Virus record (IMG/VR): IMGVR_UViG_2832576359_000003
Location: 26,348-90,347 of that record
Source of the DNA: a virus
Taxonomy: Duplodnaviria > Heunggongvirae > Uroviricota > Caudoviricetes
Direction: 5' to 3' (one strand)
DNA: 64,000 nt
Both the position numbers and the translations under genes were made by a program. A model generated the notes under the pieces. The model saw nothing but the letters and a program-made list of their open reading frames with translations, was not told the DNA's origin and made no database searches. Numbering within the stretch: position 1 is the first letter of the stretch; the number at the start of each line of letters is the position of its first letter. Of the stretch, positions 3,007 to 42,027 are shown one piece after another.

Positions 3007-3459
3007 GTGTTTCGTTTCCGCGAAAAATCGCGTCCGCCTACCGGGCGCCTCTCCTACAAGGTGTTTCGAAAGGGCGCGCTCATCGAGGAATTCGATGATC
3101 ACAACCTGATCGTCATCGGTTCCCAAGCCACGCATGCGCACCTTCTTGGCGGCGACGTCGCAAATCGAAGCCTGACGCAGATTGGCTTCGGAACCAACGC
3201 GACGGCCGAGGTATTCGCGAATGCCGCGCTGACGGGCGCGTACATGAACAGCCTAGGCACGCCGACCTATCCGGCTACCAACGAGGTCAGCTTTCCGTTC
3301 TCGCTTGGTTCTGCCGACGTCAACGCGTTTGGGCTCTCGATCTCCGAATTCGGTTTGCTGACTGCCGGCGGCGTTCTATACGCACGCCGCACGCGCGCAT
3401 TGCCTCTCAACTTCAACAGCGACCTGTCTCTCTCCGGGACGTGGGTCATTTCGTTCTGA
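3007..3459 (+). CDS. Hypothetical tail-associated protein
   Basis: 150-aa ORF between the baseplate genes and the tail fibre. No recognisable motif. Confidence 0.35.
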   Translation: MFRFREKSRPPTGRLSYKVFRKGALIEEFDDHNLIVIGSQATHAHLLGGDVANRSLTQIGFGTNATAEVFANAALTGAYMNSLGTPTYPATNEVSFPFSLGSADVNAFGLSISEFGLLTAGGVLYARRTRALPLNFNSDLSLSGTWVISF

Positions 3460-3470
3460 GGCCGCGATAA

Positions 3471-4682
3471 ATGGCAAATCAACCGGAAGTCGCGGAATAC
3501 GATGCTGGCGTATATCAGCTCGAAGTCTCAGATCCTGTTCAAGGTGGCGTGGGAGGGCTCGCGAACGCGCCGCTGCTGAACCTCGCCAATCGGACGGCGT
3601 GGCTCTATACGCAAGTGAACAGCCTGCTCGGCGGAACGGTTATCCCGCCCACGGTTGCTCCGATCAACTCGCCGACCTTCACCGGGTCGCCGGCCGCTCC
3701 GACTCCGGCGCTCGGAGACAACTCGACGAAGCTCGCGACGACGGCCTTCGTGCAAAACACGGTCAGCGGCGAGATTTCCGTGCCGGTCGCGGGCGGCGCG
3801 AACGTCACGCTTTCGGCGGTGCAGGCTGGTAACGGCGTGCTGAATCTGACTGGAGCGCTGACAGCGAACATCGCGGTCATCGTGCCGGGGCAAGGGAAGT
3901 GGACCGTCCTCAATAAGACGACGGGCGCGTACACGCTCACTGTCAAGACGGCCGCAGGCACGGGCATCGCGGTCACGCAAGGGTACTCGCAGAATCTGTG
4001 GTCGGACGGCACCAACGTCTACACGCAGGTTACCGACTTCCCCAGCCTGGTCTTGACCGGAACGCCGACGGCGCCGACGGCGGCCGCCGGCACGAACACA
4101 ACCCAGATCGCCACCACGGCGTTTGTCACAAGCGCGGTGAGCACGGCAACGAGTGGGCTCGCACCGCTCGCTTCGCCAACCTTCACCGGCACGCCGGCCG
4201 CGCCGACTGCGACGGCTGGCACGAACACGACTCAGCTTGCGACAACGGCATTCGTGACGGCGGCGATCACGGGTGTGACGACGGGCTTCGCGCCCCTCGC
4301 GTCGCCCGCATTCACCGGTACGCCGACCGCGCCAACCGCCGTTTACGGGACGAGCAATACGCAGCTCGCGACGACGGCATTCGTGGCGAACAATTATGCG
4401 GCGCTCGCTTCGTTCACGGCTTCAATCGCGTTGCCTGGCTATCAGAAGCTGCCGAGCGGTCTCATCATGCAGTGGCTCTACTTCACCGCATCGGCATCGT
4501 TGACCTTGCAGCTGGCGACGCTACCTATCGCCTTTCCAACCGCCATCTTGGCGATCATCGCGAGTTCGGTCTCTACGAACAGCCCGGTTTATAGCCAGAA
4601 GTACGGGACCTCACTCACGCAGATTTACGTCGCGAGCCAGAACGCGTCGGGTGCTGGCTACGTTCTTGTTATCGGATACTAA
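3471..4682 (+). CDS. Tail fibre protein with tandem collar-like repeats
   Basis: At least 4 tandem copies of the motif SPTFTGTPAAPTA-GTNTTQLATTAFV, typical of P2 gpH-like fibres. Followed by a chaperone-like gene. Confidence 0.75.
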   Translation: MANQPEVAEYDAGVYQLEVSDPVQGGVGGLANAPLLNLANRTAWLYTQVNSLLGGTVIPPTVAPINSPTFTGSPAAPTPALGDNSTKLATTAFVQNTVSGEISVPVAGGANVTLSAVQAGNGVLNLTGALTANIAVIVPGQGKWTVLNKTTGAYTLTVKTAAGTGIAVTQGYSQNLWSDGTNVYTQVTDFPSLVLTGTPTAPTAAAGTNTTQIATTAFVTSAVSTATSGLAPLASPTFTGTPAAPTATAGTNTTQLATTAFVTAAITGVTTGFAPLASPAFTGTPTAPTAVYGTSNTQLATTAFVANNYAALASFTASIALPGYQKLPSGLIMQWLYFTASASLTLQLATLPIAFPTAILAIIASSVSTNSPVYSQKYGTSLTQIYVASQNASGAGYVLVIGY

Positions 4683-4685
4683 GCA

Positions 4686-5246
4686 ATGGGACAGAAATAC
4701 GCCGCCTACGATTCGACCGGCGCCATCGTGGGGTTCTACGACAGCGAAGACAGTCCGGTTCCGACCGGTACGAATGTGATCGAAATTACGGATGCGCAGT
4801 GGTCGGCTGCGATCCAAAACACGACCGGCTTCAAGGTTGTCAGCGGTGTGCTCGTCTCGGTGACCCCGACCGCGGCCCAGCTGCTCGCCACGGCGCAAAC
4901 CACGCAGAAGCTGGTCATCGACGCCGCCTATGCGGATGCGATCCAGCAGAACGTTTCGTTCACCACGGCGGCCGGCGTAACGGAGACATTCGAGGCCGAC
5001 AGCGACAGCCAGACGCTCCTCGTATCGGCAACTCAGGGCTATACGATCGCCGGTGCGACGCCGGCTGGGTTCTATTGGGTCGCGGCCGACAATACGCAGG
5101 TACCGTTCACGCTCGCCGATCTGACGGGGCTCTACCAAGCGACGCTCGCGCAAGGTTGGGAAGCGTTTCAAAAACGCCAGACCCTGAAGTCGCAGATCGA
5201 TGCTGCGACGACTGTCGCCACGGTGCAAGCAATCACCTGGTCATGA
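4686..5246 (+). CDS. Tail fibre assembly chaperone (gpG-like)
   Basis: 186-aa ORF immediately after the tail fibre, start 4 nt after the fibre stop. Call is positional. Confidence 0.45.
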   Translation: MGQKYAAYDSTGAIVGFYDSEDSPVPTGTNVIEITDAQWSAAIQNTTGFKVVSGVLVSVTPTAAQLLATAQTTQKLVIDAAYADAIQQNVSFTTAAGVTETFEADSDSQTLLVSATQGYTIAGATPAGFYWVAADNTQVPFTLADLTGLYQATLAQGWEAFQKRQTLKSQIDAATTVATVQAITWS

Positions 5247-5796: not shown

Positions 5797-6114
5797 ATGA
5801 ACATGGATTTGCTGCCAGTTATTCAGGCCATCTGGGCGGTTCTCGTGTTGGTGCTTATGGCCTTCTCGACCGTCTTGTGGTTTCTGTTCATGTCCGTACG
5901 CGCTGACGCACGCAAGGCTAACGATGGGCTCGCCGAGCACCGGGTGTATTGCGCCGAAAACTACGTCACGTCTAAGGAACTCACTGAGTCGATCGGCGCG
6001 CTGAATCAGACAATCGATCGCCTCATTGCGGCGGTGAATACCAACATGGAGGAGACGCGGCGCGCGCTCTCCGAAATTCACCGCCGCGTCGACACAGTGG
6101 CCGCCGGCAAATGA
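5797..6114 (+). CDS. Small membrane protein, putative holin/lysis regulator
   Basis: N-terminal transmembrane segment (LLPVIQAIWAVLVLVLMAF) plus a coiled-coil tail. Stop overlaps the start of the endolysin. Confidence 0.4.
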   Translation: MNMDLLPVIQAIWAVLVLVLMAFSTVLWFLFMSVRADARKANDGLAEHRVYCAENYVTSKELTESIGALNQTIDRLIAAVNTNMEETRRALSEIHRRVDTVAAGK

Positions 6115-6680
6115 ACGACGACCTCGTACTCACCGCGGACGACCTCTCGCTCACGAAAAGCGCTGAGGCCTGCTATCTCACCGCGTACCCGGACCCCGCC
6201 TCGGCGCTCGCGCAGAAGCTTGTCGCGCTCGGCCTGTGGGCACAGACGCTTCGCGGCGTCGCGATCCCCGCGTCAGTGCTCGCGCTCGGGCTGATCGGCG
6301 CGCCGTGGACGATCGGATATGGGCACACCGGACCCGAAGTGCATCAGGGCCTCGTGTGGACTCAGCCGCAAGCGGATGCCGCGTTGCTGGCCGACATGAG
6401 CGCCGTGCAGGCAAATGTGCGCGCGCACGTCACGGTCGCGCTGACGAAGCCGGAGTTCGTCGCGCTTTGCGACTTTGCATACAACGTCGGGACCGGGAAT
6501 TTCGACACATCAACGCTGTTGAAGCTGCTCGACGCGGGCGACTTCGAGGGCGCGGCCGCGCAATTCGCGCGATGGAATCTGGCCGGCGGCGTCGTTCTCG
6601 CTGGCCTTGTGAAGCGGCGCGGGGCGGAAGCTGCGCTGTTCCTGTCAGGACTGGTCCAAGCGACGACGGCGACGACCTAA
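6111..6680 (+). CDS. Endolysin, GH24 phage lysozyme (lambda R / T4 lysozyme family)
   Basis: SAEACYLTAYPD(P) catalytic Glu/Asp/Thr region and GYGHTG motif. Sits in the lysis cassette. Confidence 0.8.
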   Translation: MNDDLVLTADDLSLTKSAEACYLTAYPDPASALAQKLVALGLWAQTLRGVAIPASVLALGLIGAPWTIGYGHTGPEVHQGLVWTQPQADAALLADMSAVQANVRAHVTVALTKPEFVALCDFAYNVGTGNFDTSTLLKLLDAGDFEGAAAQFARWNLAGGVVLAGLVKRRGAEAALFLSGLVQATTATT

Positions 6681-6700
6681 GTGATAGAGGGAGGAAGGGT

Positions 6701-7072
6701 ATGTGGGGGCTCATTCGGTCGCATTGCCGGATGCCTCAGTTCGAGTTTGTGCGCACCTTCATGCGCCACATTCTCACGGAAGCAGACGGCGAGTCGTATG
6801 ACCTGATTCGCGTATTGGCTCTGTGCTTCGGCGCGAGCTTCGCTATCGGTGGCATGGGCGGCTTCGGCGTGATCGTCGCGTGGGGCGTGCGGCAGTTGAC
6901 GCATCACGCGCTCGATGTCGGCGCGTACTCGACGGCGCTGGCGACCTCATTCGGGGCGTTCGCCGCGGGCTGCGCGACGCTGATGCCCGCGATCGGCTTC
7001 GCTCTCGCGAAGCGCGCTCAGGGCGAGGGGCCATCGGTGCCTGACAAACCAGCAGAGGGAGGTGAGAAGTGA
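6701..7072 (+). CDS. Membrane protein, putative holin/antiholin
   Basis: 124 aa with 2-3 hydrophobic helices (LALCFGASFAIGGMGGFGVIVAWGV...) directly after the endolysin. Confidence 0.4.
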   Translation: MWGLIRSHCRMPQFEFVRTFMRHILTEADGESYDLIRVLALCFGASFAIGGMGGFGVIVAWGVRQLTHHALDVGAYSTALATSFGAFAAGCATLMPAIGFALAKRAQGEGPSVPDKPAEGGEK

Positions 7073-7587
7073 TTTCGTTTTTGATTGCGCATTGGGTGTG
7101 GTTCTCGGGCGGCGGCGCTGCGCTCGTTTTTAGCCTCGTGGCGGGCCTGCTCAGTTGGATCGGGCCTACCGCTCTGATCGCGAACTGGAAAGCCATTCTC
7201 GGCGCCATCGTCGCGGTCGTCGTGCTCGGCGTGATTCTGGTCCTGTACGCGTTGCTCGAACACACGAAGGCCGCGCTCGCGGCCGAGCAGCTCGCTTACT
7301 CGAAGCTCAACGGGAACTACCAGATCGTGCTCGGCGAGAACGCGACGCTCGGCGCCGACAACCTGAAGCTGTCGTCGACGGCGGCCCTGCAGACGGCTAC
7401 CGTCAAGGCGATCGCGGCCCAAGGGGCGCAGGCCAAGCAAGATGCCGCAGCGGCCGTCGCAGCGGCGCTGGCTGCTCAGACGTCCGATCGCGCGACGATC
7501 GCGCGGCTGACCGCGCGTATCAATGATCCGAGTTCGAAGAATGGAGGTTGCGAAAATGAAATCGCTGCTCTGCGCGCTGCTCTGTAG
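7069..7587 (+). CDS. Inner-membrane spanin-like protein (Rz-like)
   Basis: N-terminal hydrophobic segments then an Ala/Gln-rich coiled-coil. The o-spanin gene starts inside its 3' end in another frame. Confidence 0.45.
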   Translation: MISFLIAHWVWFSGGGAALVFSLVAGLLSWIGPTALIANWKAILGAIVAVVVLGVILVLYALLEHTKAALAAEQLAYSKLNGNYQIVLGENATLGADNLKLSSTAALQTATVKAIAAQGAQAKQDAAAAVAAALAAQTSDRATIARLTARINDPSSKNGGCENEIAALRAAL

Positions 7588-7879
7588 CGCGGCGCTCGCC
7601 GCGTGTGCATCCGGGCCCGCGATCGCGCCGGCACCAGTGCTCGACGTGAAGGTCCAAACGGTGGACGTTCCGACGCCGGTCGCATGCGTCGACAAGGTGC
7701 CGGACAAGCCGGCTCTCCTGTCCGATCAAGACCTGCTCGCAGGGAGCGGTGCTCAGGTCGTTGACCAGCTATGGCGCGACCACGTGCAGCGCCGCGACTA
7801 CGAGGCCGTGCTCGAGCCGATCGTATCGAAATGCGCGGCGATCCCGGTCGCGGCATCGGCGCCAGCGGCAATACCGTAG
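7556..7879 (+). CDS. Outer-membrane lipoprotein spanin (Rz1-like)
   Basis: MKSLLCALLCSAALAAC signal peptide with lipobox. RBS GGAGG upstream. Overlaps the 3' end of the i-spanin gene. Confidence 0.5.
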   Translation: MKSLLCALLCSAALAACASGPAIAPAPVLDVKVQTVDVPTPVACVDKVPDKPALLSDQDLLAGSGAQVVDQLWRDHVQRRDYEAVLEPIVSKCAAIPVAASAPAAIP

Positions 7880-8536: not shown

Positions 8537-8902
8537 TTAAACCGCCTCGCCAATCAATACGCTCGCGGGAATATTCAGTCCTTGATGCAAGCGTCGGATC
8601 ATCGGAAGCGTTAGGTGTCGGCGGCCGTTCAGAATCTCGTACACACGATGCTTGGGCCCGATATATTCGGCCATGTCTTGTACACCGAGGCCTGCTTGCT
8701 CCATCCGGAATCGAATCGCCTCAATTGGATCGGGACGTTCCATCGGGAAGTGCTCGGCCTCATACCGCTCGACGAGAATAGAGAGGATTTCGAGCTCGTC
8801 GCCGTCGGGCGTGCCAACTTCGGGATCCATATCGACGAGCGCGGACACACGTACGAGAGTGGCCTCGTAGTCTACTTCGCTATGAAGAGGGCGGATTTCC
8901 AT
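8537..8902 (-). CDS. higA: HigA antitoxin (XRE-family HTH)
   Basis: MEIRPLHSEVDYEATL...PDPIEAIRFRMEQAGL matches the HigA consensus. Lies immediately downstream of the HigB-like gene. Confidence 0.75.
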   Translation of the reverse strand: MEIRPLHSEVDYEATLVRVSALVDMDPEVGTPDGDELEILSILVERYEAEHFPMERPDPIEAIRFRMEQAGLGVQDMAEYIGPKHRVYEILNGRRHLTLPMIRRLHQGLNIPASVLIGEAV

Positions 8903-8905
8903 CTT

Positions 8906-9208
8906 TTACTCCGGTTCAACAGTCGCGGCGTCGATCGCATCATATTCAGCGTGAGTGCCGATGAATTTGACGTACACAATGCCGACGCGATAAGCGATGG
9001 CAACGACCAATCGATAATCGTTACCCTTAATATTGAAGACAACTCGGTTGTTGCCAACGAAGCTGGCATTCCGATATTGGTCTTTGACGTCCTGCGGCTT
9101 CGTCCATCTTGCCCGGGAAGCTTCCTCATACCACGCCATCAGCGCCGGAGCGGCGTCTTGATTGTTGGCTATGAAAGCGGTCAGGGTTCTTTTGGCTACG
9201 ATTCGCAT
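8906..9208 (-). CDS. higB: HigB toxin (RelE/ParE superfamily)
   Basis: MRIVAKRTL...FNIKGNDYRLVV...FIGTHAEYDAID matches the HigB family consensus. Toxin-first higBA order. Confidence 0.75.
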   Translation of the reverse strand: MRIVAKRTLTAFIANNQDAAPALMAWYEEASRARWTKPQDVKDQYRNASFVGNNRVVFNIKGNDYRLVVAIAYRVGIVYVKFIGTHAEYDAIDAATVEPE

Positions 9209-9330: not shown

Positions 9331-9669
9331 TCAGCCTCTGATCAACTCGGGGCGCCATTCACGCACGATCGCCTCGAACTGAGATCCATAGCCCAGCGTG
9401 TCCGGGTAGCTGTGCGAGCGCGAGGCGAGTCGAAACACCACGCACATGTCATCGACGATGTCGTCATCAACACCCCACGCGGTCGTCAAATCGTATTTGC
9501 CGCACTCCGCGGAATTCCACCACGCGAGCAAAAAGTCAGCGACGCTGCGACTTTGGCCTGTATTGCCTTGTGCTCGCGATATCAGCCGCTCGAGCGCCGC
9601 CTTCTCCGCTGGTTGCAAGTGTTCGGAACGCATCGTTGATCCCCCTATTCCTTCGAAAGTAAATCTCAA
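9331..9669 (-). CDS. Hypothetical protein (downstream of trfA)
   Basis: 112-aa ORF. Start may instead be the internal Met near 9633. Confidence 0.35.
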   Translation of the reverse strand: MRFTFEGIGGSTMRSEHLQPAEKAALERLISRAQGNTGQSRSVADFLLAWWNSAECGKYDLTTAWGVDDDIVDDMCVVFRLASRSHSYPDTLGYGSQFEAIVREWRPELIRG

Positions 9670-9992
9670 TGGGCGTTGAGATTTTCTCGAACCATTGCGG
9701 CAATACCGTCCAAGTATCTGTCGACAATAGCGCTACGCACTGCACGCGGTGCTAGCTGACCGATTTCAGGCGGGAAATGAGCGTGTGCCGCGGCCACGTT
9801 GATCGCCCTGAGAAGCGTGGGAAGGGATGCTCCAGCGTACCGCGCCTGGAGTTGATCGGTACGTACAACGTAGCGAACAAGGATTGGGGCCACGAAACCT
9901 GTGCTTCCGAGATCCATCGGATCTTTTATTGCACCAAGCTCTTCGAACGACATGTGTTTCACTTCTTCGAACGAATATTGCTTGAGTTCCAC
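9666..9992 (-). CDS. Hypothetical protein (downstream of trfA)
   Basis: 108-aa ORF overlapping its neighbour by 4 nt. Confidence 0.35.
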   Translation of the reverse strand: MELKQYSFEEVKHMSFEELGAIKDPMDLGSTGFVAPILVRYVVRTDQLQARYAGASLPTLLRAINVAAAHAHFPPEIGQLAPRAVRSAIVDRYLDGIAAMVRENLNAH

Positions 9993-10049
9993 GCGATCTC
10001 TCCGTTACTTGTGTTGGTGTATGCGCGCGGCCGCGATGGAGTTACCGGG

Positions 10050-10913
10050 TTAAGCGCTGATCGCGCGCGCTGCTTTTCCGACGTGAACCTTGTCGTCGTC
10101 ATCGATCTTCCACGAAGCAAGAAACCCGACCGATTGAAGTTCGGTCAAAGCCTTTTTGAGCGTCACGCGAAAATGCGACAGCGCCTTCGCCTGCGACCCG
10201 CATTGCTGGTGGATGAATTTCACCGACACCGCGAACGGAGCTGCGTGGGTGTTGTAGTAGCTATGTAGCCACTTCGACAGTTCTGACCTGAGCCGCAGCC
10301 GCTGCTCGCGCGCGACTCGGCTGTAATCATCGGATGCAAACAGTCGCGCGATCTCGGGTTCGATGTAGCAAATCCACCGAGTCTGCCCATCCGAGTCCGT
10401 CTCGGTGCCGTCCTTCCAGATGAACTTTCGAATCAACGAACCCTGAAAGCCTTTTCGGTTTCCCTCGAACGCCACCTTGAGCGAGCTTTCCTGCAGCCGC
10501 TCAAGGATCTTCACGAGGCGCTCGTACCCTTTGCTCGACGTGTCCCATCCGAGCGTCTTCAGCATCGCGTATCCGGTGAATTCGACGCGCTCCGACAAAA
10601 TCGTGTCTCGGGCCAGATGCAGGATCTCAAGAAAGACGTCGGCGTCGTCCTGCCGCAGCTCCTCGCCTTTGTGCGTGATCGTCGTCGTTCCCGAGCTAGC
10701 GATTTGCTTTCCCGGGAAGTATCGATCGCGCGGCGCCGCGGCGCGGTTCACGTTGAAGAGCGCCGATCGCGCGAGCGAATTCGGCATGCCCCGGACGTTG
10801 GACGGCCAGAGCGGGATCTGCGTAGGCTCGTCGGGCTTGGCGACAGCAGCCTTAGCGCTTCTGGCGAGAGCCGCTGCACCGAGTTGCCTAGTTTTTTCGA
10901 CGAGATCATTCAT
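10050..10913 (-). CDS. trfA: TrfA-type plasmid replication initiator
   Basis: LPLWP, RGMPNSLARSALF and winged-helix blocks resemble IncP TrfA. Start placed at MNDLVEK. An iteron-containing oriV lies immediately upstream. Confidence 0.6.
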   Translation of the reverse strand: MNDLVEKTRQLGAAALARSAKAAVAKPDEPTQIPLWPSNVRGMPNSLARSALFNVNRAAAPRDRYFPGKQIASSGTTTITHKGEELRQDDADVFLEILHLARDTILSERVEFTGYAMLKTLGWDTSSKGYERLVKILERLQESSLKVAFEGNRKGFQGSLIRKFIWKDGTETDSDGQTRWICYIEPEIARLFASDDYSRVAREQRLRLRSELSKWLHSYYNTHAAPFAVSVKFIHQQCGSQAKALSHFRVTLKKALTELQSVGFLASWKIDDDDKVHVGKAARAISA

Positions 10914-10949
10914 GGCGGCCACACTAGCGGTAGTCTGCACGATTCGCAA

Positions 10950-11400
10950 CCCACTACCTTCGGGTTTCTAGCGATGGTCGTTGCTTTTCGGCCAGAGGCT
11001 CGGGTTTCTGGCGATGATCTGAAAAACGGCGTTTGTGCACAACTCTCGGGTGTCTAACGACGGTCATCCAGTGGATATCTGTCGGGTTTCTGGCGACGTG
11101 TTCGGGTGCCTAGCGACGACACCTTCGGGTGTCTAGCGATAGAGGCTCGGGTTTCTAGCGATCGCATGGACATGAAATTTCCTTTTTATTCAATGAATTA
11201 CATGGTGTTTTGGAGAGACCTAATCAGTCTTTAATCTTCTTTAATCCACACCAGACCATCGCTAGAAACCCGATAGTTCGCGATTTCCGGCCCCCGATTT
11301 CGTACCGTCGCTAGAAACCCGATAGTGGAAAATCGTCGCTAGAAACCCGTGGCTACACGTTATGCCCCATCGCTAGAAACCCGTGCCCCGGTGAGCACTC
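10950..11400. repeat. oriV-like origin: 7 direct plus 4 inverted iterons flanking an AT-rich segment
   Basis: Core CGGGTTTCTAGCGA (variants CGGGTGTCTAACGA, CGGGTTTCTGGCGA) at about 10962, 10999, 11045, 11079, 11101, 11123, 11144, the last four on a 22-bp period. AT-rich island 11165-11250. Inverse-oriented TCGCTAGAAACCCG at about 11251, 11307, 11335, 11369. Confidence 0.8.
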
Positions 11401-11559
11401 ACTGTCGGTGAACTCGCGCCCGCCTATGGACAGGGGCGCTGCCCACCGCCTGTCGGCCGTGGACAGCCGCTTCGCGGTCCCTCCCCTGCCCACAGGCTCC
11501 CCGCGGCCCGTGCCCTTCGGGCCTGACGCGCCCTGACGGGCTTGCCTTGCGTTGGGATA

Positions 11560-11600
11560 AACCATAAAAAAACCGGGCTGCATTGCTGCTCGCCCGGTGG
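11560..11600 (-). terminator. Rho-independent terminator of the parAG operon
   Basis: Minus-strand hairpin (CCGGGCgagcagcaatgcaGCCCGG) followed by a T-run, seen on plus as aaaaaaaCCGGGCtgc...GCCCGG. Confidence 0.55.
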
Positions 11601-11664
11601 TCCAGAGTGCTGTGTTACAAGGCTCGGGTTCTGTTTGCCGCCCTGCCCTCCCCGTGTACTTGCT

Positions 11665-12084
11665 TTACTCGAGTCCGTATTTCTTTTTCAACGCGGCCAG
11701 CTTGTCTCGAGTGCCGGCGATGATCACCTCGGACATGGGAATGTCCGTGGCCTTCCAGAAATCCCGCAGTTCCTCGTGCAGGTCGACGGGGAGACGAGTT
11801 TGAAACGGCGTGGTGGCCACCGATCGGCGGCGAGGGATGGGCAACGGATCGTCCTGCGGCTCGTTTTGCGGCTCCACAGGGGGCTTGGGCGCCCTTTCCC
11901 GCGGCTTGGGTGCAGCGACGGCCTCCGAAGCCATAGTGGCGGCCACCTGGTCTTGTGTGTGCGCGGCTGCCTCGGCAGCGTCGATTGCTGTCAGGGAGGA
12001 CGGTGTTTCTGCCTCGTCGCTGTTGCCGCCCTTGATAAATTCCATCGGGCTGCGAAAGCCCTTCCCTCGTGCGGCTGCATTCAT
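11665..12084 (-). CDS. ParG-like ribbon-helix-helix centromere-binding protein (type Ib partition)
   Basis: Small protein downstream of parA. C-terminal TRLPVDLHEELRDFWKATDIPMSEVIIAGTRDKL looks like an RHH fold; N-terminus is disordered. Confidence 0.5.
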   Translation of the reverse strand: MNAAARGKGFRSPMEFIKGGNSDEAETPSSLTAIDAAEAAAHTQDQVAATMASEAVAAPKPRERAPKPPVEPQNEPQDDPLPIPRRRSVATTPFQTRLPVDLHEELRDFWKATDIPMSEVIIAGTRDKLAALKKKYGLE

Positions 12085-12728
12085 TGTGCGATCTCCAGAG
12101 CAAGGGCGCGCATCTCGGCTACGGCCTTGGGGTCAGTGCTGCCGTTGTATTCGGTCACGGCGCGGCCGTCGCGCGCCGTCAGGCGGAATATCTTGCGCTC
12201 GCTGATGAACCCGTCCAGCAGCCGGTATTGGGTCAGGTCTTGAAGGGCTTCGCGCATTTCCGCCACGTCGGTCGATCGGGCGTTTGTCGGAGCGCGGTTG
12301 ATCACCACGAGTGCGCGCAAAGTCTTGTTCCAGATCCGCGCGTTTTTGACGTGGTTGTCCATCTTCGCGAACGTGAAGATGTCGAACTGGCTGGTTTGAG
12401 CAGGTGTGACCACCACATCGGCGGCCACCATCGAGGCGCGCATTTCCTCCGCGTCGTGCCCAGGCGTATCAACCACGATATCGTCGTACTTTGCTTTGAG
12501 GGTCGTCAGCTCTTCTGCAATCGTGGCGCCATAGATGCTGACACACGTGATTTCAGGGGTGATTTTCTCCGTGCGACGTATCTTGTGCCATAGCGATGCC
12601 GATCCCTGCCTATCTGCATCGACGAGTAGCACGTCACGTCCCTCGCCCGCCAGCATTGCGGCATACCCGACGGCCAGCGTGGTTTTACCACTGCCCCCTT
12701 TCTCTCCGCCAAACAAGACAACAGCCAT
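12081..12728 (-). CDS. parA: ParA partition ATPase (small type Ib)
   Basis: Deviant Walker A (GGEKGGSGKTT) and DADRQGS motif. About 215 aa. Start placed at MAVVLFGG. Confidence 0.8.
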   Translation of the reverse strand: MAVVLFGGEKGGSGKTTLAVGYAAMLAGEGRDVLLVDADRQGSASLWHKIRRTEKITPEITCVSIYGATIAEELTTLKAKYDDIVVDTPGHDAEEMRASMVAADVVVTPAQTSQFDIFTFAKMDNHVKNARIWNKTLRALVVINRAPTNARSTDVAEMREALQDLTQYRLLDGFISERKIFRLTARDGRAVTEYNGSTDPKAVAEMRALALEIAQ

Positions 12729-12779
12729 GACAAATACCCCGCGCGCTTGATGTGAATACGCGCAGGGTAGTTGCAATGT

Positions 12780-12900
12780 GCGTGAAATGCAACGTTCGGT
12801 GAATCAAATACTTATGTGTGTGTTTGCGTGCGTATAGGTGTATATCAGGCGTGCTATACGGATATACAGCTATACGGCTATCAACTAGGATTGGCGGAGG
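12780..12900. promoter_or_regulatory. Putative par promoter/centromere region
   Basis: AT-richer segment upstream of parA with short repeats (TATACGG x3, GTGTGTGT). Function inferred only. Confidence 0.3.
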
Positions 12901-13340
12901 GGTTTCGTGGTTGGTGGGGGTTCGTCAATCAAGCTTTTTTGCAGGAGGGCGTGCTGGGATTCTCGCATGGCTTCTGTGAACCGTGTCTCCACGAACTCAA
13001 GTGTCATTCCTTGCGGGCGTGCATGCTGCCTGTCATATACGCAATGGCACCAGTAGCACGCGTAGCAGCCATATACGTCATCCGCCTTCATACCTCCTGC
13101 CTTGCCGTGCTCGCTGCGGTTCGAATGCGCCCACACGACGTTTCCGATCTCCGTCTTGCACACGCCTGGCAGGCGCAACCGACAATACTCTCCGTTCGCC
13201 GATTTCCTGATTTTACTCGTCGGTGCTCGGCGGCTTTTCAGACCCGACCGCGGTGCGAGTTTGCGATCCGGTGCAATATCGCAAACTGGATAGGAGAGCG
13301 CCTCGGGCTTCGTGCGAGCGATCGGCGCCGCGCGTTGCAT
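12885..13340 (-). CDS. NinG/DUF1364-like putative HNH-type recombination nuclease
   Basis: Cys/His cluster: CRLRLPGVC...VVWAHSN...GCYACYWCHC. Start set at MQRAAP to avoid a long overlap with the upstream gene. Confidence 0.45.
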   Translation of the reverse strand: MQRAAPIARTKPEALSYPVCDIAPDRKLAPRSGLKSRRAPTSKIRKSANGEYCRLRLPGVCKTEIGNVVWAHSNRSEHGKAGGMKADDVYGCYACYWCHCVYDRQHARPQGMTLEFVETRFTEAMRESQHALLQKSLIDEPPPTTKPLRQS

Positions 13341-13435
13341 CTGCTTCGCGCCGGGCTTGGACTGGAAAGCGGAACGCTTGAGGGGGGTGTTTCGCGATAG
13401 CCCCTTTCCAGCAGACTTAAAACTGCTGTTCCAAC

Positions 13436-14047
13436 TCACGCTTTGATGATCCCGGCGTACGCCAATTCGCGCTGAATCTGGACCTCTAGCATTTCGGCCG
13501 ATATTTGCGCCGGCGTCATTGTCAACGTGCGATCGCGCATCCAGGCGATCGATGCCCGTGCCGCGTCGACCTCGCGCTGCGTGATGGGCATATCTAGTTC
13601 GAAATGCTTGGCGAGCTTGCGAAGGCCCGCGGTCTGGTCGTCCCATCCATGAGTGCGCGCGAGCTTATCGTAGGTAACGCACACGCTCTCGAGCGCAGGC
13701 GCGAGCGGATAGAGGTTTCCATCAGGCGCGCGGAAACCTGCGACGCCGTTTCGCAGTGTTTCGATTTCTCCGGTCGCGACCAGTGTGTCGAGCAACGATT
13801 CGACGGGGCCGAACACGGCATCGATGCGCGGTCGCTGTTCCTCGTGCGCGAAGGGAAGGTTGTTCGCGATCTCCGCCTTCTTGAGCGCATGGGCCTCTGC
13901 CTTGTACACCAGGCTCGTGATGTGTGACCGCATGCGCTTCGTCGCTGCCGCTGCCTCACCCGCGTCTCGGCGCGCGCGCACCGATGCCTTATCGGTGCCG
14001 CGACGCTGTGCGCGGCTCAGCTTTGGTTGTGCTTGTGCCGTTTCCAT
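13436..14047 (-). CDS. Hypothetical protein in the recombination module
   Basis: 203-aa ORF between the ssb gene and the NinG-like gene. Confidence 0.4.
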   Translation of the reverse strand: METAQAQPKLSRAQRRGTDKASVRARRDAGEAAAATKRMRSHITSLVYKAEAHALKKAEIANNLPFAHEEQRPRIDAVFGPVESLLDTLVATGEIETLRNGVAGFRAPDGNLYPLAPALESVCVTYDKLARTHGWDDQTAGLRKLAKHFELDMPITQREVDAARASIAWMRDRTLTMTPAQISAEMLEVQIQRELAYAGIIKA

Positions 14048-14049
14048 GA

Positions 14050-14598
14050 TCAGTACCGCGCTGCGCCGTCGCGCCGAAGGGGAATGCCGTCGACAGCAGC
14101 GGGCCGCATGAACGGGATGTCGTCGTCAGGAATGTCGCCATATCCGCTCGACTTGGGCTTGCCGCCGCGGGGCGGCGCCGGGTTGTTCGAGCGCTCCTCG
14201 CGATCGTCGTTTGCCCCACCGGAGCTTCGAGCGCCCCCGAGCATCTGAAAGCTATCGACGCGAAGCTCGGTCGAATAGATGTCCTTGCCGGACTGGTCTT
14301 GCCACTTGCGCGTGCGCCACTTGCCTTCGACATACACCTGTTGTCCCTTCTTCAGGTGCTCGCCGGCGATCTCGCCATAGCGTCCGAACACCTGGCAGCG
14401 GATCCATTCGGTGATTTCCTTCTGGTCGCCAGACTGCTTGTCCTTGTAGCGATCCGTGACGCCGATTCGAAACGTGGCGATCGCTTCGCCACTCTGCATG
14501 TATCGAACCTCGGGATCAGCGCCGAGGTTTCCAATGAATGTGCAGCGATTGAGGCTCAAAACGTTTGCTCCGTGAGAAGCGGGGGAGTGCCCCCGCAT
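14050..14598 (-). CDS. ssb: Single-stranded DNA-binding protein
   Basis: OB-fold block FIGNLGADPEVRYMQSGEAIATFRIGV, Gly/Pro-rich linker and acidic C-terminal tip DDDIPF. True start may be the TTG about 14 codons in. Confidence 0.85.
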   Translation of the reverse strand: MRGHSPASHGANVLSLNRCTFIGNLGADPEVRYMQSGEAIATFRIGVTDRYKDKQSGDQKEITEWIRCQVFGRYGEIAGEHLKKGQQVYVEGKWRTRKWQDQSGKDIYSTELRVDSFQMLGGARSSGGANDDREERSNNPAPPRGGKPKSSGYGDIPDDDIPFMRPAAVDGIPLRRDGAARY

Positions 14599-14606
14599 GT
14601 GTTCAG

Positions 14607-16460
14607 CTACGCCGCGTTGCGATACGAGTTCGAATTCGCGATCTGGTCGCTAATGGCCGGGAACAGTTCGGCGATCTGGTCGACGTCGGCGAGTTCGCCC
14701 TCATGCACCCACTCGCACGCGATCTGCTCGGGCATTCCAAGCGCGGGTTGCTTGAGGGTGGCGAAGAGGAGGGCCGTGTTGATGGCGCCATCGTTCGCTC
14801 GCTTCGCGAGCCAGAGGAGGAGGGCGACGCGCGACTTCGCGTCGAGCACATCGACGCGGTCCAGGATCAAAATCCCGAGGCCCGAAATCGATGCGATCGC
14901 TTCGGCGAGCATCGCGTCGATGCGCCACTTCTCCGACTCACAAAGCAGGCTATAAGCACGACTGTCGCCGGTGATGGTCATGTCCGTATGGATCGTCGCC
15001 TGCGGCCAGTTCGTGTCCATCGCGGATTTGCGAAGGGCGCTATTGATTGGCCTAAGCGCTTTCGCGAGCAGCTGCGCGGGCACGCCTTCGGGTCCGAGCT
15101 GCTCGGCGAGCTTCCCCCACTCGAGCACAGCGGTGTGATGCTTGGCGGCGCGCGTGGACTTGTCGTCTGCCTCGTCTGCCTTCGTCTTTTGCTGTTGAAG
15201 GGTGATGTAGTTCTCGTCTGCCTCGCGATACTCGGCGAGATGAAGCTCGAGCGATTCCTGCGCAACGTTGATGTCGGCTTGCGTGACCTGTTCGCTGCTC
15301 GACGGTTGCGCTGCTTTCTCGCGGGCGATCTCGGCGGAGCGCAACGAACGCTCGGTGTTCGTTTGAGCGTTGGTCGCCATCTCGAGTGCCTTGGTGAACT
15401 CCGCGAGCTTCGCGCGCGCCTCGTCGTCGCCTGTGCTGCTCGGCAAGCCGTACTTGTCGACGTACCGATCGAAGGACGGCTGTAGCTGCGCGCAGATTTC
15501 GACGAGACTTTCCGTCTTCGTTCCTTCGAGGGCATCCAGGGCATATTCGATGCCGCGCGCCAGGTCGTGTTCGAGCCCGACTCGCGGCCCGCTTCCGGCC
15601 TTTGCCTTGAGCGCGTCGACCTGCTGTTGAACCTCGGCGAGCGTCTGGCGATCGGCCATCAGTTGCGAGAAAAGCCGCGGCACTTTTTCGCCCAACTCGC
15701 GGGCCGCGGCGCGTTCTCGGGTTTCGGACTCGTACGCTTCGGCCTTAGCCTTAAGGCTGCCGATGATTTCCTGCGTCGTGTGCACTTGCTTCTCGCATGC
15801 ATCACGCTTCGCCTCGGCCTGCGCGATCGCTTCGGCATCGACTTCGGGCTTCTCGGCCTGCCAACCTTCAGCCTTCTTCGAGCCGTACGTTTCGCCCGTG
15901 ACTTCGCGCCATGCGCCGCGCGCTTCGGTCACCTTGACCGTCGCGAACTTCGCGGCCGCGGGAAAGCCCGTGATCGACTTGAGCAGGGGCAGCGTTTCCT
16001 CGACGAAGACGGCGTCGCACTTGGCCTCGAGCAGCATCGTGCGCAGCCGGTCCTCGGTGACGCCGCAATCGGTGAGGGAAAACAGGAAAGTGCGCCGCTC
16101 GTCGTCGGTCAAGCGCGCGAAGCCCTGCGCGTTGAGAACGTAGGGGAGCGCCTCGGGAAGCCCGAGCGACAGGTCTCCGGTCATGGCGTTCGTGCCGGCC
16201 GGGAGCGAAAACGACGCTTCTCCGATGTCCGTAGCGACGCTCACAGTCCCTGCCTTAGCTCCCTCTGTGACCAGAGTCGGATAGAACTTCTTCAGGTTCA
16301 CGCGCAACGTCTCGCCCGTGAAGGCCATGCGCACGGCTTCCTGGATTGATGACTTCGCGGCGCCGTTGAATCCCGCGAATAAGGTGATAGGGCGCGCCGG
16401 AGCGATATCGATGCGGCGCGCGCCGAGGATGTTGCGAATGCTGATGCTGGTGATTTTCAC
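14607..16460 (-). CDS. SbcC/Rad50/RecF-like AAA ATPase
   Basis: N-terminal Walker A (FAGFNGAAKSS), long coiled-coil middle, C-terminal ILILDRVDVLD Walker B/D-loop-like block. Between ssb and recT. Confidence 0.65.
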   Translation of the reverse strand: MKITSISIRNILGARRIDIAPARPITLFAGFNGAAKSSIQEAVRMAFTGETLRVNLKKFYPTLVTEGAKAGTVSVATDIGEASFSLPAGTNAMTGDLSLGLPEALPYVLNAQGFARLTDDERRTFLFSLTDCGVTEDRLRTMLLEAKCDAVFVEETLPLLKSITGFPAAAKFATVKVTEARGAWREVTGETYGSKKAEGWQAEKPEVDAEAIAQAEAKRDACEKQVHTTQEIIGSLKAKAEAYESETRERAAARELGEKVPRLFSQLMADRQTLAEVQQQVDALKAKAGSGPRVGLEHDLARGIEYALDALEGTKTESLVEICAQLQPSFDRYVDKYGLPSSTGDDEARAKLAEFTKALEMATNAQTNTERSLRSAEIAREKAAQPSSSEQVTQADINVAQESLELHLAEYREADENYITLQQQKTKADEADDKSTRAAKHHTAVLEWGKLAEQLGPEGVPAQLLAKALRPINSALRKSAMDTNWPQATIHTDMTITGDSRAYSLLCESEKWRIDAMLAEAIASISGLGILILDRVDVLDAKSRVALLLWLAKRANDGAINTALLFATLKQPALGMPEQIACEWVHEGELADVDQIAELFPAISDQIANSNSYRNAA

Positions 16461-16508
16461 GTTGGCTCCTGTTGGGGGAGGGGAGCGGCGCTCGCGCGCC
16501 GCTCCGCG

Positions 16509-17621
16509 TCAGTCCATCTGAATGAGGGTCGCTTGCTTCGAGCTCTGCGCGCCTTCTTGGAGGGCGGCGCGGCGCTCGCGAAAAAGTGCGTTGAGCGCTT
16601 TGTGCCGATGCTTCGGCGTCGACGAGATCAGATCGGCGGCAATGTCCAGCGTGTCTTCGCTCGTTGCGTTGCGCAGCTGCTGCTCGATCTTGTCGGCCTC
16701 GCGCTCTGCGGGGTCTTGCTCGGGCTCCGCTTGGGCTGAGTTCGCGTGCGATGGCGCGGCTGCCGTAGCGATAGTGGTGGTCTGAGCTGGTTCCTGAGCG
16801 CTTTCGACACGCTGCGTATCGTTTTCAGCACCGTGCTGTCCATCGTCGACGTCGGGGGTGTTCAGGTCGCTGATCGGTGCAATGAGGCCGTCGCCGTCGA
16901 TCGTGAAGTTTTTTCCGTCTTCGCTGGCTGCGTCCAGCGCGATCGCGTTCGAGAGTTCGACCGACTTCGGTACGTACTTGATGACTTGTAGGAGTGGCAC
17001 TTTGCGCGCGTACATCTCCCAGTTGTTAAAGCTGTAGTGCTTCTGCCCGACCTTGTTGACCTTGTCGCGGTGGCGCGCGATTTTGCTAATGGGCCAGAGT
17101 TCGACGACGGGGATATCGGCGCCCTTAATCCATCCGATCGCATAGGCGTGCGTGATGTCGAGCGGATCGTCGAGTGATGTCTCGTTGTGGATCACGAGGT
17201 CGCGCCGCGCGCCATCGGTGAACGTGTACTTCTGGTCGCTGTAAATGACGCCTGTGTAGACCACCGCGCGCCCGGCGCGTGCTACGAGGTCGACGAGACC
17301 CTGCCAACCTGGCACGAACGTGCACTTGCCCTTGTAGGGCACGAGGTAGCCTTGGCCCGTGATGCCGATCTCAAGCCCGAGTTGCGCGGCCACGATCACG
17401 CTCGCGAAAATCGTCCGGATGTCGCATTTGGCGAGCTCGGCGTTTTGGCTGAATTGCGTCAGCGCCAATCGCATCATGCGGTCGGGTTTGAGATGCGTCG
17501 GCAGCGCCATTTCGAGCTGCGCCTTGTGTTTCTGGAAGAAGTCACTCAGGGTCTGCTGCGGCGACGACTTCTTTTCAGTCGGCGCGTTGTTTTCGCGAAG
17601 TGCGGTTAGGGACGTCGTTGC
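16509..17621 (-). CDS. recT: RecT-family single-strand annealing recombinase
   Basis: Conserved RecT core (YLVPYKGKCTFVPGWQGLVDLVARAG). Start placed at MATTSL. Confidence 0.75.
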   Translation of the reverse strand, partial: ATTSLTALRENNAPTEKKSSPQQTLSDFFQKHKAQLEMALPTHLKPDRMMRLALTQFSQNAELAKCDIRTIFASVIVAAQLGLEIGITGQGYLVPYKGKCTFVPGWQGLVDLVARAGRAVVYTGVIYSDQKYTFTDGARRDLVIHNETSLDDPLDITHAYAIGWIKGADIPVVELWPISKIARHRDKVNKVGQKHYSFNNWEMYARKVPLLQVIKYVPKSVELSNAIALDAASEDGKNFTIDGDGLIAPISDLNTPDVDDGQHGAENDTQRVESAQEPAQTTTIATAAAPSHANSAQAEPEQDPAEREADKIEQQLRNATSEDTLDIAADLISSTPKHRHKALNALFRERRAALQEGAQSSKQATLIQMD

Positions 17622-17656
17622 CATAGTCTCGGGATTCCAGTGAAAGGGTAGGTCGG

Positions 17657-18532
17657 TTACGCGTCGCGGTAGATGCACGAATCCCACCGGCCGCAAAAGC
17701 GGGGGTCACACAGAGGACTGCTTGGGTTGGGCGGGAACATGCCCGACTTGAGGAACTGGACGGCATGGGCAATCAGGCCGTCTTCGTATGAGGTGCCGAG
17801 CATTGGGCGCTTGGCGTCGAACGTCTTGCTCACGCCCGTGCGCGCGCTCGCTGTCGTCTGAAGGGCGATGATCTGTGACCCCTCAGTCGGGGTGCGCGTG
17901 TTCTGCTCGAACATGATCGCGTACGCGCCGAGCTGAGGACTGCGTCCCTTGATCAGCACGTTGCCGTCGGCATCGATGAGCCGCGATCCAGTCTTGATGT
18001 CGGGGATGATCACGCCGCCGGCGCCACCTCGCGCCACGCGCGCTCGGTCCATCGTGCCTTTTAGGCGCAGCGTGATTCCGTCGCCGCAGTCGATGTCGAC
18101 CGGCTCCATCTTCATCTCGACCGCGACGAATTCGAATTGCGGGCTGATCTCCGCGCAATATTTCGCGTGCAGGGTCAGGCCGATCTGCTCGGCCTCGCGC
18201 ATGGTGATGCTGCGGTCCTGCTTGTAGTCGACGTCGCCGCCCGGGTTGTGAAGCGTGGCGACGAATACGTCGGCCGCGTCGCTCGCGGTGATCCCCGTCC
18301 CGTCAATACGGCTCTGGTCGAATACGGCGGTGCTGGCGTGGACTGCAGTGCCGAGGCTTGCTCGGATGCCCGAAGGGCGTTTGAGATTGAGAAGGTGCTC
18401 GCCTTCCCATGCATACGCGCAATCAAAGAGTCGTCCCCAGGACGAAGCGCGTACTTCGATGATGCGTGTCGTGGTAAGTGTCACTTGAGCGGGTCCGTGT
18501 CCGTCCAGTATTCTGCGCTGGTGGCAGAACAC
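17657..18532 (-). CDS. PD-(D/E)xK exonuclease with Cas4-like C-terminal Cys cluster (RecE/YqaJ functional analogue)
   Basis: IIPDIKTGS motif and C-terminal CDPRFCGRWDSC (Fe-S type cluster). Immediately upstream of recT. Confidence 0.6.
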   Translation of the reverse strand: MFCHQRRILDGHGPAQVTLTTTRIIEVRASSWGRLFDCAYAWEGEHLLNLKRPSGIRASLGTAVHASTAVFDQSRIDGTGITASDAADVFVATLHNPGGDVDYKQDRSITMREAEQIGLTLHAKYCAEISPQFEFVAVEMKMEPVDIDCGDGITLRLKGTMDRARVARGGAGGVIIPDIKTGSRLIDADGNVLIKGRSPQLGAYAIMFEQNTRTPTEGSQIIALQTTASARTGVSKTFDAKRPMLGTSYEDGLIAHAVQFLKSGMFPPNPSSPLCDPRFCGRWDSCIYRDA

Positions 18533-20095: not shown

Positions 20096-20216
20096 TACAT
20101 CGAGTTAGCGTGAATTATATCCCGAAAGTTGCCTGCCAAGCAGAACGTGTTCTGCAATTTTTTGTGAACTGTGCAGATTGCAAGTCCGCGCGCCGCACCG
20201 CTTGCGCGGGGGGCGC

Positions 20217-21089
20217 ATGACGACGCACCATTTCGAGGTCGACGACGCCGTTCGATATGGCGTGAACGCCGCTGTCATTCTTCAGAATCTTCGATTCTGG
20301 ATCTTGCACAACAAGGCGAACGGGAAGCACCAGCACCAGGGCCGGACCTGGACGTTCAACAGTGCTCGCGCGTTCTCGCTGCTGTTCCCATACCTAAGTG
20401 CCGATCAGGTGAAACGCATCCTTCGCAAGCTCGTCGACGAAGGTGTTTTGCTCGCGCGCACGCTCGCTGAGGACAGTTGGGATCGAGTCAACTGGTATGC
20501 GTTCGATGATGAGTCGAAGCACCTTGCACAGCCCGAAACCCCCGTCGCAGCGCATGGTGCAAATTCGCCCAATGCATCGGGCGGAATCGCACCATCCATG
20601 GGGCGAAAGCGCACCGTCGATGGTGCGAAATCGCCCAATCACAAGACAGATGTAAACACAGATAAAAAACGCAGATCTAAATCTATATCGGCTGCTGCGC
20701 AGCCTGACGATGATTTCGAGCAGGCCTGGGCGCTTTATCCGAGTCGGGGCGGTGGAAATTCGAAGGCCGACGCGCTGAAGGCTTGGAAGGCGCGCATTGC
20801 TGCTGGCGACACCGCTGCGCAAATGCTCGAGGGCGTGCAGCGCTACGCGGTGTTCTGCGACAAAACAGGGAAGCTCGGCACCGAGTACGTGAAGCAGGCT
20901 AAGACGTTCTTTGGACCCTCTCGGCACTTTGCTGATGCGTGGCCTGTGCCGGTCGCCTCGGCGCCGGCCGCGCGCGACGACACGCGCTTTGCTTCTTCGC
21001 GCTCGATCGTAGGTTCGGCATCCCCTCATTCCGTAGGAGCACGCGATGACGGCAAGACCATCGACGCTGACGCTCGCTTCGTCAACTGA
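20217..21089 (+). CDS. Lambda O-like replication initiator (winged-helix N-terminus)
   Basis: N-terminal winged-HTH-like domain. Iteron repeats plus an AT-rich stretch sit inside the coding region at 20545-20700, as in lambda ori. Followed by an overlapping P-like gene. Confidence 0.45.
   Translation: MTTHHFEVDDAVRYGVNAAVILQNLRFWILHNKANGKHQHQGRTWTFNSARAFSLLFPYLSADQVKRILRKLVDEGVLLARTLAEDSWDRVNWYAFDDESKHLAQPETPVAAHGANSPNASGGIAPSMGRKRTVDGAKSPNHKTDVNTDKKRRSKSISAAAQPDDDFEQAWALYPSRGGGNSKADALKAWKARIAAGDTAAQMLEGVQRYAVFCDKTGKLGTEYVKQAKTFFGPSRHFADAWPVPVASAPAARDDTRFASSRSIVGSASPHSVGARDDGKTIDADARFVN
20545..20700 (+). repeat. Lambda-type origin inside the O-like gene: 4 iterons + AT-rich region
   Basis: GGTGCAAATTCGCCC, GGCGGAATCGCACC, GGGCGAAAGCGCACC, GGTGCGAAATCGCCC at about 20-bp spacing, then acagatgtaaacacagataaaaaacgcagatctaaatctatat. 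Confidence 0.6.
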
Positions 21090-25600: not shown

Positions 25601-25604
25601 GTTT

Positions 25605-41320: not shown

Positions 41321-41896
41321 CTATGCCGTGGCGCGCGCGCGCATGATGGTCTGGCGGCTCGTGCCGAAGTCGCGGGCCACGATGCCGATGGGCGTGCCCT
41401 CGGCCAGCCGCTCGCGCACCTGGACCTTCTGCGCCTCGGTGAGGCTTGCGCGGCGCCCGAGCTTCTTTCCCTCTTTGCGCGCCCGGTCGAGCCCCGCGTG
41501 CGTGCGCTCGATCAACAGGTCGCGCTCGAACTCTGCAACGGCCGTGATGACGCTCATCGTCATCTTGCCCGCGGCGCTCGTGAGGTCCACGCCGCCCAGG
41601 GCGAGGCAATGCACGCGCACGCCGAGGCTCGCGAGGTTCTCGACGGTCTGCCGCACGTCCATCGCGTTGCGGCCCAGCCGGTCCAGCTTCGTCACGATCA
41701 GCACGTCGCCTTCCTCGAGGCGGTCGAGCAGCTTGGCGAAGCCCGGCCGCTCGCTGGCGTTGACGCTGCCGCTGATGGTTTCGGCCACGATGCGGCGCTG
41801 GTCGACCGCGAAGCCGTGGGATTGGACCTCGGTGACCTGGTTGGCGGTCGTTTGCTCGGCGGTGCTGACCCGCGCGTAAAGGAAGGTTCGGCTCAT
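41321..41896 (-). CDS. Serine recombinase (resolvase/invertase family)
   Basis: [11 protein letters not shown] catalytic Ser block, resolvase core, C-terminal HTH ([17 protein letters not shown]). About 190 aa. Confidence 0.8.
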
Positions 41897-42027
41897 TTTC
41901 TTCGATTTCTTCACATTGACGAAATGGGTGTACGAATTCTGCCTTATACGCAGAATTACGCAACCCTATTTTTTGGACACCTTTCTTCGGGCCGTCCAGA
42001 TTCGTCCGTTATCGGCGGGGGTGCTCT

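Follow-up and report, generated by a model that had tools for sequence, protein, structure and literature searches.

Phage-plasmids link the gene pools of phages and plasmids, and their well-defined types are few and mostly enterobacterial. P1, a temperate myovirus of ~90 kb, combines an iteron plasmid replicon (oriR/RepA), a partition operon (ParAB), a toxin-antitoxin system (phd-doc), Cre-lox and a second initiator for lytic replication from oriL. Among plasmids, the oriV of RK2 (IncP-1) contains clustered 17 bp iterons with a spacing of about 22 bp, DnaA boxes, and AT-rich and GC-rich segments. The element described here combines features of both. It was studied in a stretch of 64,000 nucleotides (the window, positions 26,348 to 90,347 of IMG/VR record IMGVR_UViG_2832576359_000003, Caudoviricetes), in which a plasmid-type replicon, made up of TrfA, 11 iterons, an AT-rich core and a GC-rich flank, lies among phage genes. 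The source is a contig of 90,347 bp from Pararobbsia silviterrae, a soil bacterium; according to exact protein look-ups, this contig carries the TrfA, a ParG-like protein (locus tag D7S86_27115), CI, TerL (D7S86_27460) and nicotinamide phosphoribosyltransferase. The window amounts to ~71% of the genome, and the other 26.3 kb of the contig lie outside the data read. From its gene content and from comparison with relatives, it is probable that this phage lysogenizes as a low-copy circular plasmid and not by integration.

The initiator gene, trfA, is on the minus strand at 10050..10913 and encodes 287 aa; its open reading frame (ORF) spans 10050-10949, the true ATG being at 10913. The protein matches the Pfam family TrfA (PF07042) with E = 1.4e-30 and 106.8 bits (cutoff 22) over profile positions 5-280 of 282. 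The TrfA-like initiator recognized in an earlier note, written from the sequence alone, thus passed the profile-matching check along its full length. The protein is 100% identical to WP_121091249.1/RKP44702.1, named by NCBI 'plasmid replication initiator TrfA [Pararobbsia silviterrae]', and it matches phrog_26900 at 1.9e-33, a PHROG annotated with 'unknown function'. Homologues occur in 640 plasmid records, with at least 80% of the protein covered in 611 of them, and none was found by tblastn in 50,697 deposited phage genomes. In IMG/VR, an alignment search recovered TrfA relatives on 28 viral contigs or loci, while a single-sequence search gave none. No solved structure for any TrfA relative was returned by a PDB search, and megablast found no near-identical DNA to 10000-13000 in phage and plasmid collections. 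A cassette of parA, a small ORF and trfA is also present on a phage-like contig of 91,330 bp (Logan SRR31403850, L228), where TrfA is 52% identical and DNA polymerase III alpha, DnaB, a primase-like protein, PhoH and Hfq are encoded too. TrfA cassettes are therefore found on at least two unrelated phage-like backbones.

The origin adjoins the start of trfA. The 14-mer CGGGTTTCTAGCGA, with up to 2 mismatches allowed, occurs in 11 copies, all of them within 10961-11383, seven on the plus strand and four on the minus strand (chance expectation 0.64; 0 of 100 shuffles reached 11). The trfA-proximal block (10961..11161, plus strand) comprises seven copies of TCGGGTTTCTAGCGA-like 15-mers, of which the last four are spaced 20-23 bp and the nearest is 48 bp upstream of the trfA ATG. 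The distal block (11259..11383, minus strand) is formed by four perfect copies of CGGGTTTCTAGCGA in inverted orientation. Between both blocks there is an AT-rich core of ~90 bp (11165..11255), with 33% GC versus 63% for the window, which is a candidate DNA-unwinding element. It contains two copies of TCTTTAATC 10 bp apart (11228-11246) and a DnaA-box-like TAATCCACA at 11242-11250, an 8/9 match that is not significant alone; window-wide, 6 DnaA-box-like sites compare with 3.7 expected, which is no enrichment. The origin is flanked by a GC-rich segment with 72% GC (11390..11560). The seven direct and four inverted iterons around an AT-rich core beside trfA are thus present in the numbers and layout described earlier.

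Concerning partition, parA (12081..12731, minus strand) encodes a small Walker-type ATPase of 216 aa, with Pfam matches to AAA_31, MipZ and CbiA, and with phrog_164 at 1.1e-42. Its best PDB match is ParF of TP228 (4dzz), which aligns end to end (residues 2-214 vs 1-201, E = 1.4e-11), so the protein fits the small deviant-Walker type without an N-terminal helix-turn-helix (HTH) domain, that is, a ParF-like protein of type Ib; against the NCBIfam model ParA_partition it scores 163 bits, below the cutoff of 180. The next ORF (11665..12084, minus strand) starts with an ATG overlapping the parA stop (ATGA), so that both genes are translationally coupled, and encodes a 139 aa protein that is a candidate ParG-like centromere-binding partner. 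Its N-terminal part is disordered and rich in Pro and Ala, and its C-terminal 45 aa resemble a ribbon-helix-helix (RHH) domain, with a weak match to the Arc-like phrog_3180 at residues 94-121 (E = 0.0026). In a single-sequence AlphaFold2 model, residues 1-95 are unstructured except for one 4-residue helix, and helices are predicted at 100-112 and 117-135, with a predicted local distance difference test (pLDDT) score of about 86. Neither Pfam nor PDB gave a match for the protein (low-complexity noise was all that phmmer and a 9-sequence profile found in PDB), and its model has no Foldseek match. Small ORFs of the same kind follow parA in 8 TrfA-bearing IMG/VR loci. Of the type Ib ParA/RHH pair proposed earlier, the ATPase is thus well founded in its ParF alignment, while the RHH assignment of its partner is weak. 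The operon ends at an intrinsic terminator with a stem followed by U7 (11568..11596, minus strand; fold -21.3 kcal/mol, z -3.2, 1 of 200 shuffles as stable), which a simple terminator scan missed. Upstream of parA, at 12832..12875, five GTATA/TATAC boxes, two inverted and three direct, stand in an exact 8 bp register, 5 of the 27 such pentamers of the window lying within 45 bp. It is plausible that these phased boxes constitute a centromere/operator, by analogy with parH/OF of TP228, which are arrays of tetramer boxes.

On the other side of trfA there is a higBA module (8537..9208, minus strand), with the toxin gene higB first (8906-9208) and higA (8537-8902) starting 4 bp after it. HigB matches HigB_toxin (PF09907, E = 1.3e-33) and HigA gives an HTH_3 match of E = 0.0012, below the Pfam cutoff; neither has an NCBIfam match. 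Between trfA and higBA (9331..9992, minus strand) lie a DUF7673 gene (9331-9669; PF24720, E = 1e-31) and a hypothetical gene (9666-9992), for which PHROG and NCBIfam scans gave nothing further. The addiction module had been placed immediately upstream of the replicon; the module itself is borne out by the PF09907 match, but two ORFs intervene and the module is downstream on the coding strand. Partition together with a toxin-antitoxin system implies a replicon that must be inherited, the only setting in which they are sensible.

The meaning of this cassette becomes clearer when the backbone that carries it is compared with its relatives. The closest TerL proteins are those of myoviruses of 86-95 kb (Aeromonas ST4, Pseudomonas Touem01, Dolphis and Jeremy, Bordetella PHB04, Yersinia fHe-Yen8-01, Morganella Mecenats66 and others), with 38-55% identity over the full length in most of them, PHB04 being aligned over 73% only. 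Baseplate proteins W and J are 35-49% identical to those of the relatives, and the ParB-methyltransferase, NinI and the gene order are common to relatives and window, genome size being similar. The phage, a temperate myovirus of ~90 kb, belongs by these likenesses to the backbone group of PHB04, ST4 and Touem01 (Phabquatrovirus-like). A tyrosine integrase gene comes directly after the lysis genes in ST4 and Touem01, that of Touem01 being annotated by similarity to one in PHB04, whereas the same slot in the window holds higBA, the DUF7673 gene, trfA, oriV, parG and parA. ST4 also has its own helicase and primase, where the window has, in addition to the TrfA/Par/HigBA cassette, an O/DnaD-like initiator. 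No homologues of the relatives' integrases, helicases and primases were found in the window by tblastn.

The alternation was examined in IMG/VR, from which 80 loci around baseplate J were retrieved, and the 37 with at least 7 kb downstream were classified. An integrase was present in 8 and TrfA in 4 (three of these also with ParA in range), and no locus had both. In those 12 relatives, the integrase or TrfA gene is located 6-9 kb downstream of baseplate J and on the same strand. A terminal repeat of 194 nt (1 mismatch) on one of the TrfA-bearing contigs, 89,361 bp long, indicates a complete genome. The TrfA-bearing phage relatives L011-L013 have 2 + 5 opposed iterons (TCGGGTTTTGAGTCCCG) around an AT-rich core, in the same layout as the window. 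A sheath-alignment search of bacterial genome contigs gave 31 relatives, with the backbone found both on contigs of 85-95 kb and inside contigs of Mb size. These observations suggest, as a tentative generalization about which we are more doubtful than confident, that the mode of lysogeny in this widespread group depends on an exchangeable cassette: one fixed site behind the tail-fibre and lysis genes would hold a tyrosine integrase in some phages and a TrfA-iteron-ParA replicon in others. If so, the lineage would be a natural system for repeated transitions between integrative prophage and phage-plasmid, lifestyles that are known to interconvert (PMC10879196), and the exclusive occupation of the slot by integrase or TrfA/ParA would offer a concrete, testable case of such a switch. 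The lineage might likewise exemplify phage-plasmids built on an IncP-like replicon, a type noted for broad host range.

The preference for plasmid-type lysogeny rests, first, on the replicon filling the integrase slot of the relatives, with both never together among them, and second, on the assembly of the element as a separate contig of 90,347 bp, the size of a phage genome; to these are added the SOS-type CI and Cro of a temperate phage and the partition and toxin-antitoxin functions. The interpretation as extrachromosomal, plasmid-like lysogeny given in the earlier note is therefore supported by comparative evidence, from which plasmid maintenance itself is inferred. In the mechanism that we infer, TrfA would bind the 11 iterons, melt the AT-rich core and recruit the host DnaA, DnaB and DnaG for theta replication, while the iteron beside the trfA start and the inverted block would serve autoregulation and copy control by handcuffing. 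For segregation of the copies, the ParF-like ParA and the small RHH-like protein would make use of the phased TATAC boxes in front of parA. Cells without the element would be killed by HigBA after its loss, and multimers may be resolved by a small serine recombinase. CI would keep the lytic genes off, and its cleavage in the SOS response would allow the Cro operon to express the O/DnaD-like initiator for lytic replication. Separate initiators for the plasmid and lytic states would correspond to the two-origin logic of P1.

One alternative for the carrier is an ordinary integrating prophage, with integrase and attP in the 26 kb outside the window and with TrfA/Par as cargo, as a remnant or as a transient function. 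The extent of the data bears directly on it. Essentially all the large ORFs of the window were scanned with PHROG and Pfam, and neither these PHROG scans nor tblastn with the relatives' integrases revealed a tyrosine integrase in the window; there is no large serine integrase in the 64 kb either. The statement that no tyrosine integrase is visible in 64 kb holds, then, for the window, but its extension to the whole element had been drawn from incomplete data, namely ~71% of the genome. Nor is the window the complete phage genome for which it had been taken, since it opens at baseplate W, its first gene, without head or tail-shaft genes, and the source contig has 90,347 bp. By tblastn with the relatives' proteins, no homologues of portal, protease, capsid, sheath, tube and tape-measure were found in the window, and no 14-mer is shared between its first and last 3 kb. 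In ST4, baseplate W follows the end of TerL after 23.2 kb, and in Touem01 after 25.5 kb. Since the structural block fills this interval in these relatives, the 26.3 kb beyond the window probably correspond to the genes for head and tail shaft, leaving no more than 1-3 kb unexplained. This remainder, not accounted for by the structural block of the relatives, the incompleteness of the window and the backbone relatives inside Mb-size chromosomal contigs all lend something to the integrating prophage. So does Touem01, in which a ParA-like gene beside TerL (L035 329-1018) coexists with the integrase that follows the lysis genes, so that, in this group, possession of a partition ATPase is not by itself diagnostic of plasmid lysogeny. 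Nevertheless, the contig has the size of a phage genome and the 64 kb read contain no host genes, the integrase slot of the lineage is filled by the replicon, and integrase and TrfA co-occur in 0 of the 12 informative relatives. Taken together, we regard integration as very unlikely here.

Some points weigh against plasmid lysogeny itself. Excision or induction of the phage could also account for a separately assembled contig, and the 1-3 kb of room within the 26.3 kb mentioned above would be enough for an integrase gene. Support is weak for the RHH fold, the centromere and the DnaA box, and a promoter scan gave no sigma-70-like promoter near trfA or parA. Moreover, the replicon region is lower in GC (55-59%) and could be a recent, possibly unadapted acquisition.

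The lysogeny switch of the phage is encoded outside the replicon. A CI-like repressor with HTH and Peptidase_S24 domains (18656-19420, minus strand) is divergent from a Cro-like HTH protein (19551-19823, plus strand), and the match of the switch to the phrog_4 transcriptional repressor reaches 1.9e-21. A CI protein with an SOS-type S24 domain and a divergent Cro indicate that the phage is temperate. Directly after cro, in the same operon, is the gene of a phage-type replication initiator (20178..21089, plus strand), O/DnaD-like, which matches the phrog_270 replication initiation protein at 8.8e-42 and other replication-initiator and DnaD-like families as well. A lytic replication function is presumed for it. 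The presence of two initiators, TrfA and the O-like protein, suggests that the element has a second, lytic replication system, as in P1. The O/DnaD-like gene is followed, within 20178-21807, by an ORF of 253 aa with no assigned function.

These genes bear on another possibility, that TrfA/oriV is mainly a vegetative origin in a phage that forms no stable plasmid lysogens and is lytic, pseudolysogenic or in a carrier state. It would be in line with the TrfA relatives on 28 IMG/VR viral contigs, with the TrfA-parA cassette of L228 (91,330 bp), a phage-like contig equipped with DNA polymerase III alpha, DnaB and primase-like genes of its own, and with the absence from the window of the helicase and primase of ST4. 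It agrees poorly, however, with a separate O/DnaD-like initiator in the Cro operon and with the S24 autocleavage domain of CI, which indicates true lysogeny; the partition ATPase, the centromere-like boxes and the toxin-antitoxin serve inheritance and not a lytic burst. A mainly vegetative role of the replicon seems accordingly quite improbable.

Coming back to plasmid-type lysogeny, a further gene that may contribute to it, missed by the earlier note, encodes a small serine recombinase of 197 aa (41321..41914, minus strand), between a TerS-like gene and a methyltransferase gene. It matches Pfam Resolvase (4.4e-37) and HTH_7, and phrog_125. The integrative relative ST4 lacks a homologue, inverted repeats around the gene are absent, and the enzyme may be a multimer resolvase. 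A role as invertase was set aside, as inverted repeats do not flank the gene and the tail-fibre genes are 36 kb away.

The tail, lysis, CI/Cro, recombination and terminase functions listed earlier for the 64 kb were all identified with PHROG/Pfam, including baseplate and tail fibres (29-5246), lysis genes (6111-7879), TerS-like and TerL proteins, and, besides these, tRNAs, three DNA methyltransferases and genes of nicotinamide adenine dinucleotide (NAD) salvage. The recombination module (13436-18532, minus strand) contains a single-stranded DNA-binding protein (SSB), an SbcC/Rad50-like ATPase (617 aa), a RecT-like annealase and a PD-(D/E)XK-type exonuclease, and an HNH/YbcO-like nuclease gene (12885-13400) adjoins parA. 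Full-length ORFs are present for every module of the window, i.e., baseplate, fibres, lysis, TerL, switch and recombination. This is of interest with respect to the idea of a defective phage-plasmid, or remnant, that kept plasmid replication and lost virion production. P1-like phage-plasmids do decay into plasmids (PMC10879196), and head and tail-shaft genes were not seen in the window; but the contig is as long as the genomes of intact relatives, and the full-length ORFs of all window modules also speak for an intact phage, so that a defective state is considered very improbable. A prophage inserted in a larger plasmid was rejected, as the contig is phage-sized, no conjugation genes or other plasmid backbone genes were seen, and the cassette is at the same place in four independent phage relatives.

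As to the origin of the cassette, the nearest relatives of its TrfA are plasmid proteins. It is 68-71% identical to TrfA of Burkholderia-group plasmids and only 37-39% identical to TrfA of the syntenic phage relatives. The value of 68%, over 253 aligned residues, corresponds to Burkholderia plasmids of MOB-suite rep_cluster_1467, and the 71%-identical relative is encoded on a conjugative-type contig. The plasmids of that cluster (e.g., pTGL1-like NC_010802 and B. glumae pR53p) have the same order of parA, partner, opposed iteron blocks and trfA; in these plasmids and in the window, two opposed iteron blocks flank a central region, and the iterons are related (TCGTTCTTCCAGCGATG vs TCGGGTTTCTAGCGATG). 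They differ in the partner, which is a 321 aa ParB in the plasmids and the 139 aa RHH-like protein in the window, in ParA, only 35% identical, and in the setting, since the window replicon sits in a phage without conjugation genes. A more distant likeness exists between the iteron/AT-rich/GC-rich origin of the window and the oriV/TrfA of IncP-1 RK2. The cassette is probably a mosaic exchanged with local plasmids, because TrfA is plasmid-like, ParA and its partner are divergent, the TrfA of the phage relatives is distant and the region is lower in GC. Such a mosaic fits the conservation of phage genes and the variability of plasmid genes in phage-plasmids (PMC7969092).

Compared with P1, the element shares the general plan of a temperate ~90 kb myovirus with an iteron plasmid replicon, a partition operon, a toxin-antitoxin and a second initiator for lytic growth, here with a candidate resolvase and a presumed lytic role of the second initiator, but its backbone and its proteins are unrelated. 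TrfA takes the place of RepA, the partition proteins are ParF/ParG-like (type Ib) and not ParAB (type Ia), HigBA stands where P1 has Phd-Doc, and a small serine recombinase where P1 has Cre; the switch is of the CI/Cro type. Within the backbone group, the Rhodovastum atsumiense 'plasmid' RHOApe (NZ_OW485606.1, 112 kb) exists as an extrachromosomal record and has related TerL (54% identity), portal and sheath proteins; it is probably another member in the plasmid state. It differs in its initiator, annotated as RepA and not TrfA, and the record gives a linear topology. Among 72,556 plasmids, only one has a related TerL with more than 50% identity. In the library of papers that was searched, none linked TrfA to phage-plasmids. 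The text of the tyPPing paper (PMC12977533) mentions neither TrfA nor Burkholderia, so a counterpart among its ten curated phage-plasmid types seems to be lacking. The phage-plasmid lifestyle is itself already known, and it is probable that the element is a phage-plasmid of a type for which no description was found. It would extend the known types by one from Burkholderiaceae, a myovirus whose iteron replicon is of the TrfA (IncP-like) kind, and its compact cassette of 2.9 kb could serve as a replicon for Burkholderia-group genetics.

Several other observations concern genes of the window with no direct relation to the replicon. A tRNA cluster at 25030-26119 was resolved by ARAGORN as Gly, Met, Glu and Trp, of which Rfam misses Glu, and Rfam alone gives a tRNA-like match of 100 nt at 26020-26119, where ARAGORN makes no call; about 1.1 kb at 25683-26801 show no convincing ORF. 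An ORF of 864 aa at 53325-55919 has a strong coding signal and no PHROG or Pfam match, and its only similarity, faint in tblastn, is to a 3.5 kb 'ADP-ribosyltransferase' gene of ST4. The DNA methyltransferases are encoded at 36155-38125, 42028-43278 and 44954-46363, one of them with a ParB-like N-terminal domain and 58% identity to ST4; together with a Lar-like restriction-alleviation protein (28878-29384), the three represent a heavy anti-restriction load. Just after TerL (60339-62908, minus strand), the NAD-salvage genes encode the nicotinamide phosphoribosyltransferase (577 aa) and a ribose-phosphate pyrophosphokinase (271 aa), in place of which ST4 carries nicotinamide mononucleotide (NMN) adenylyltransferase and PnuC.

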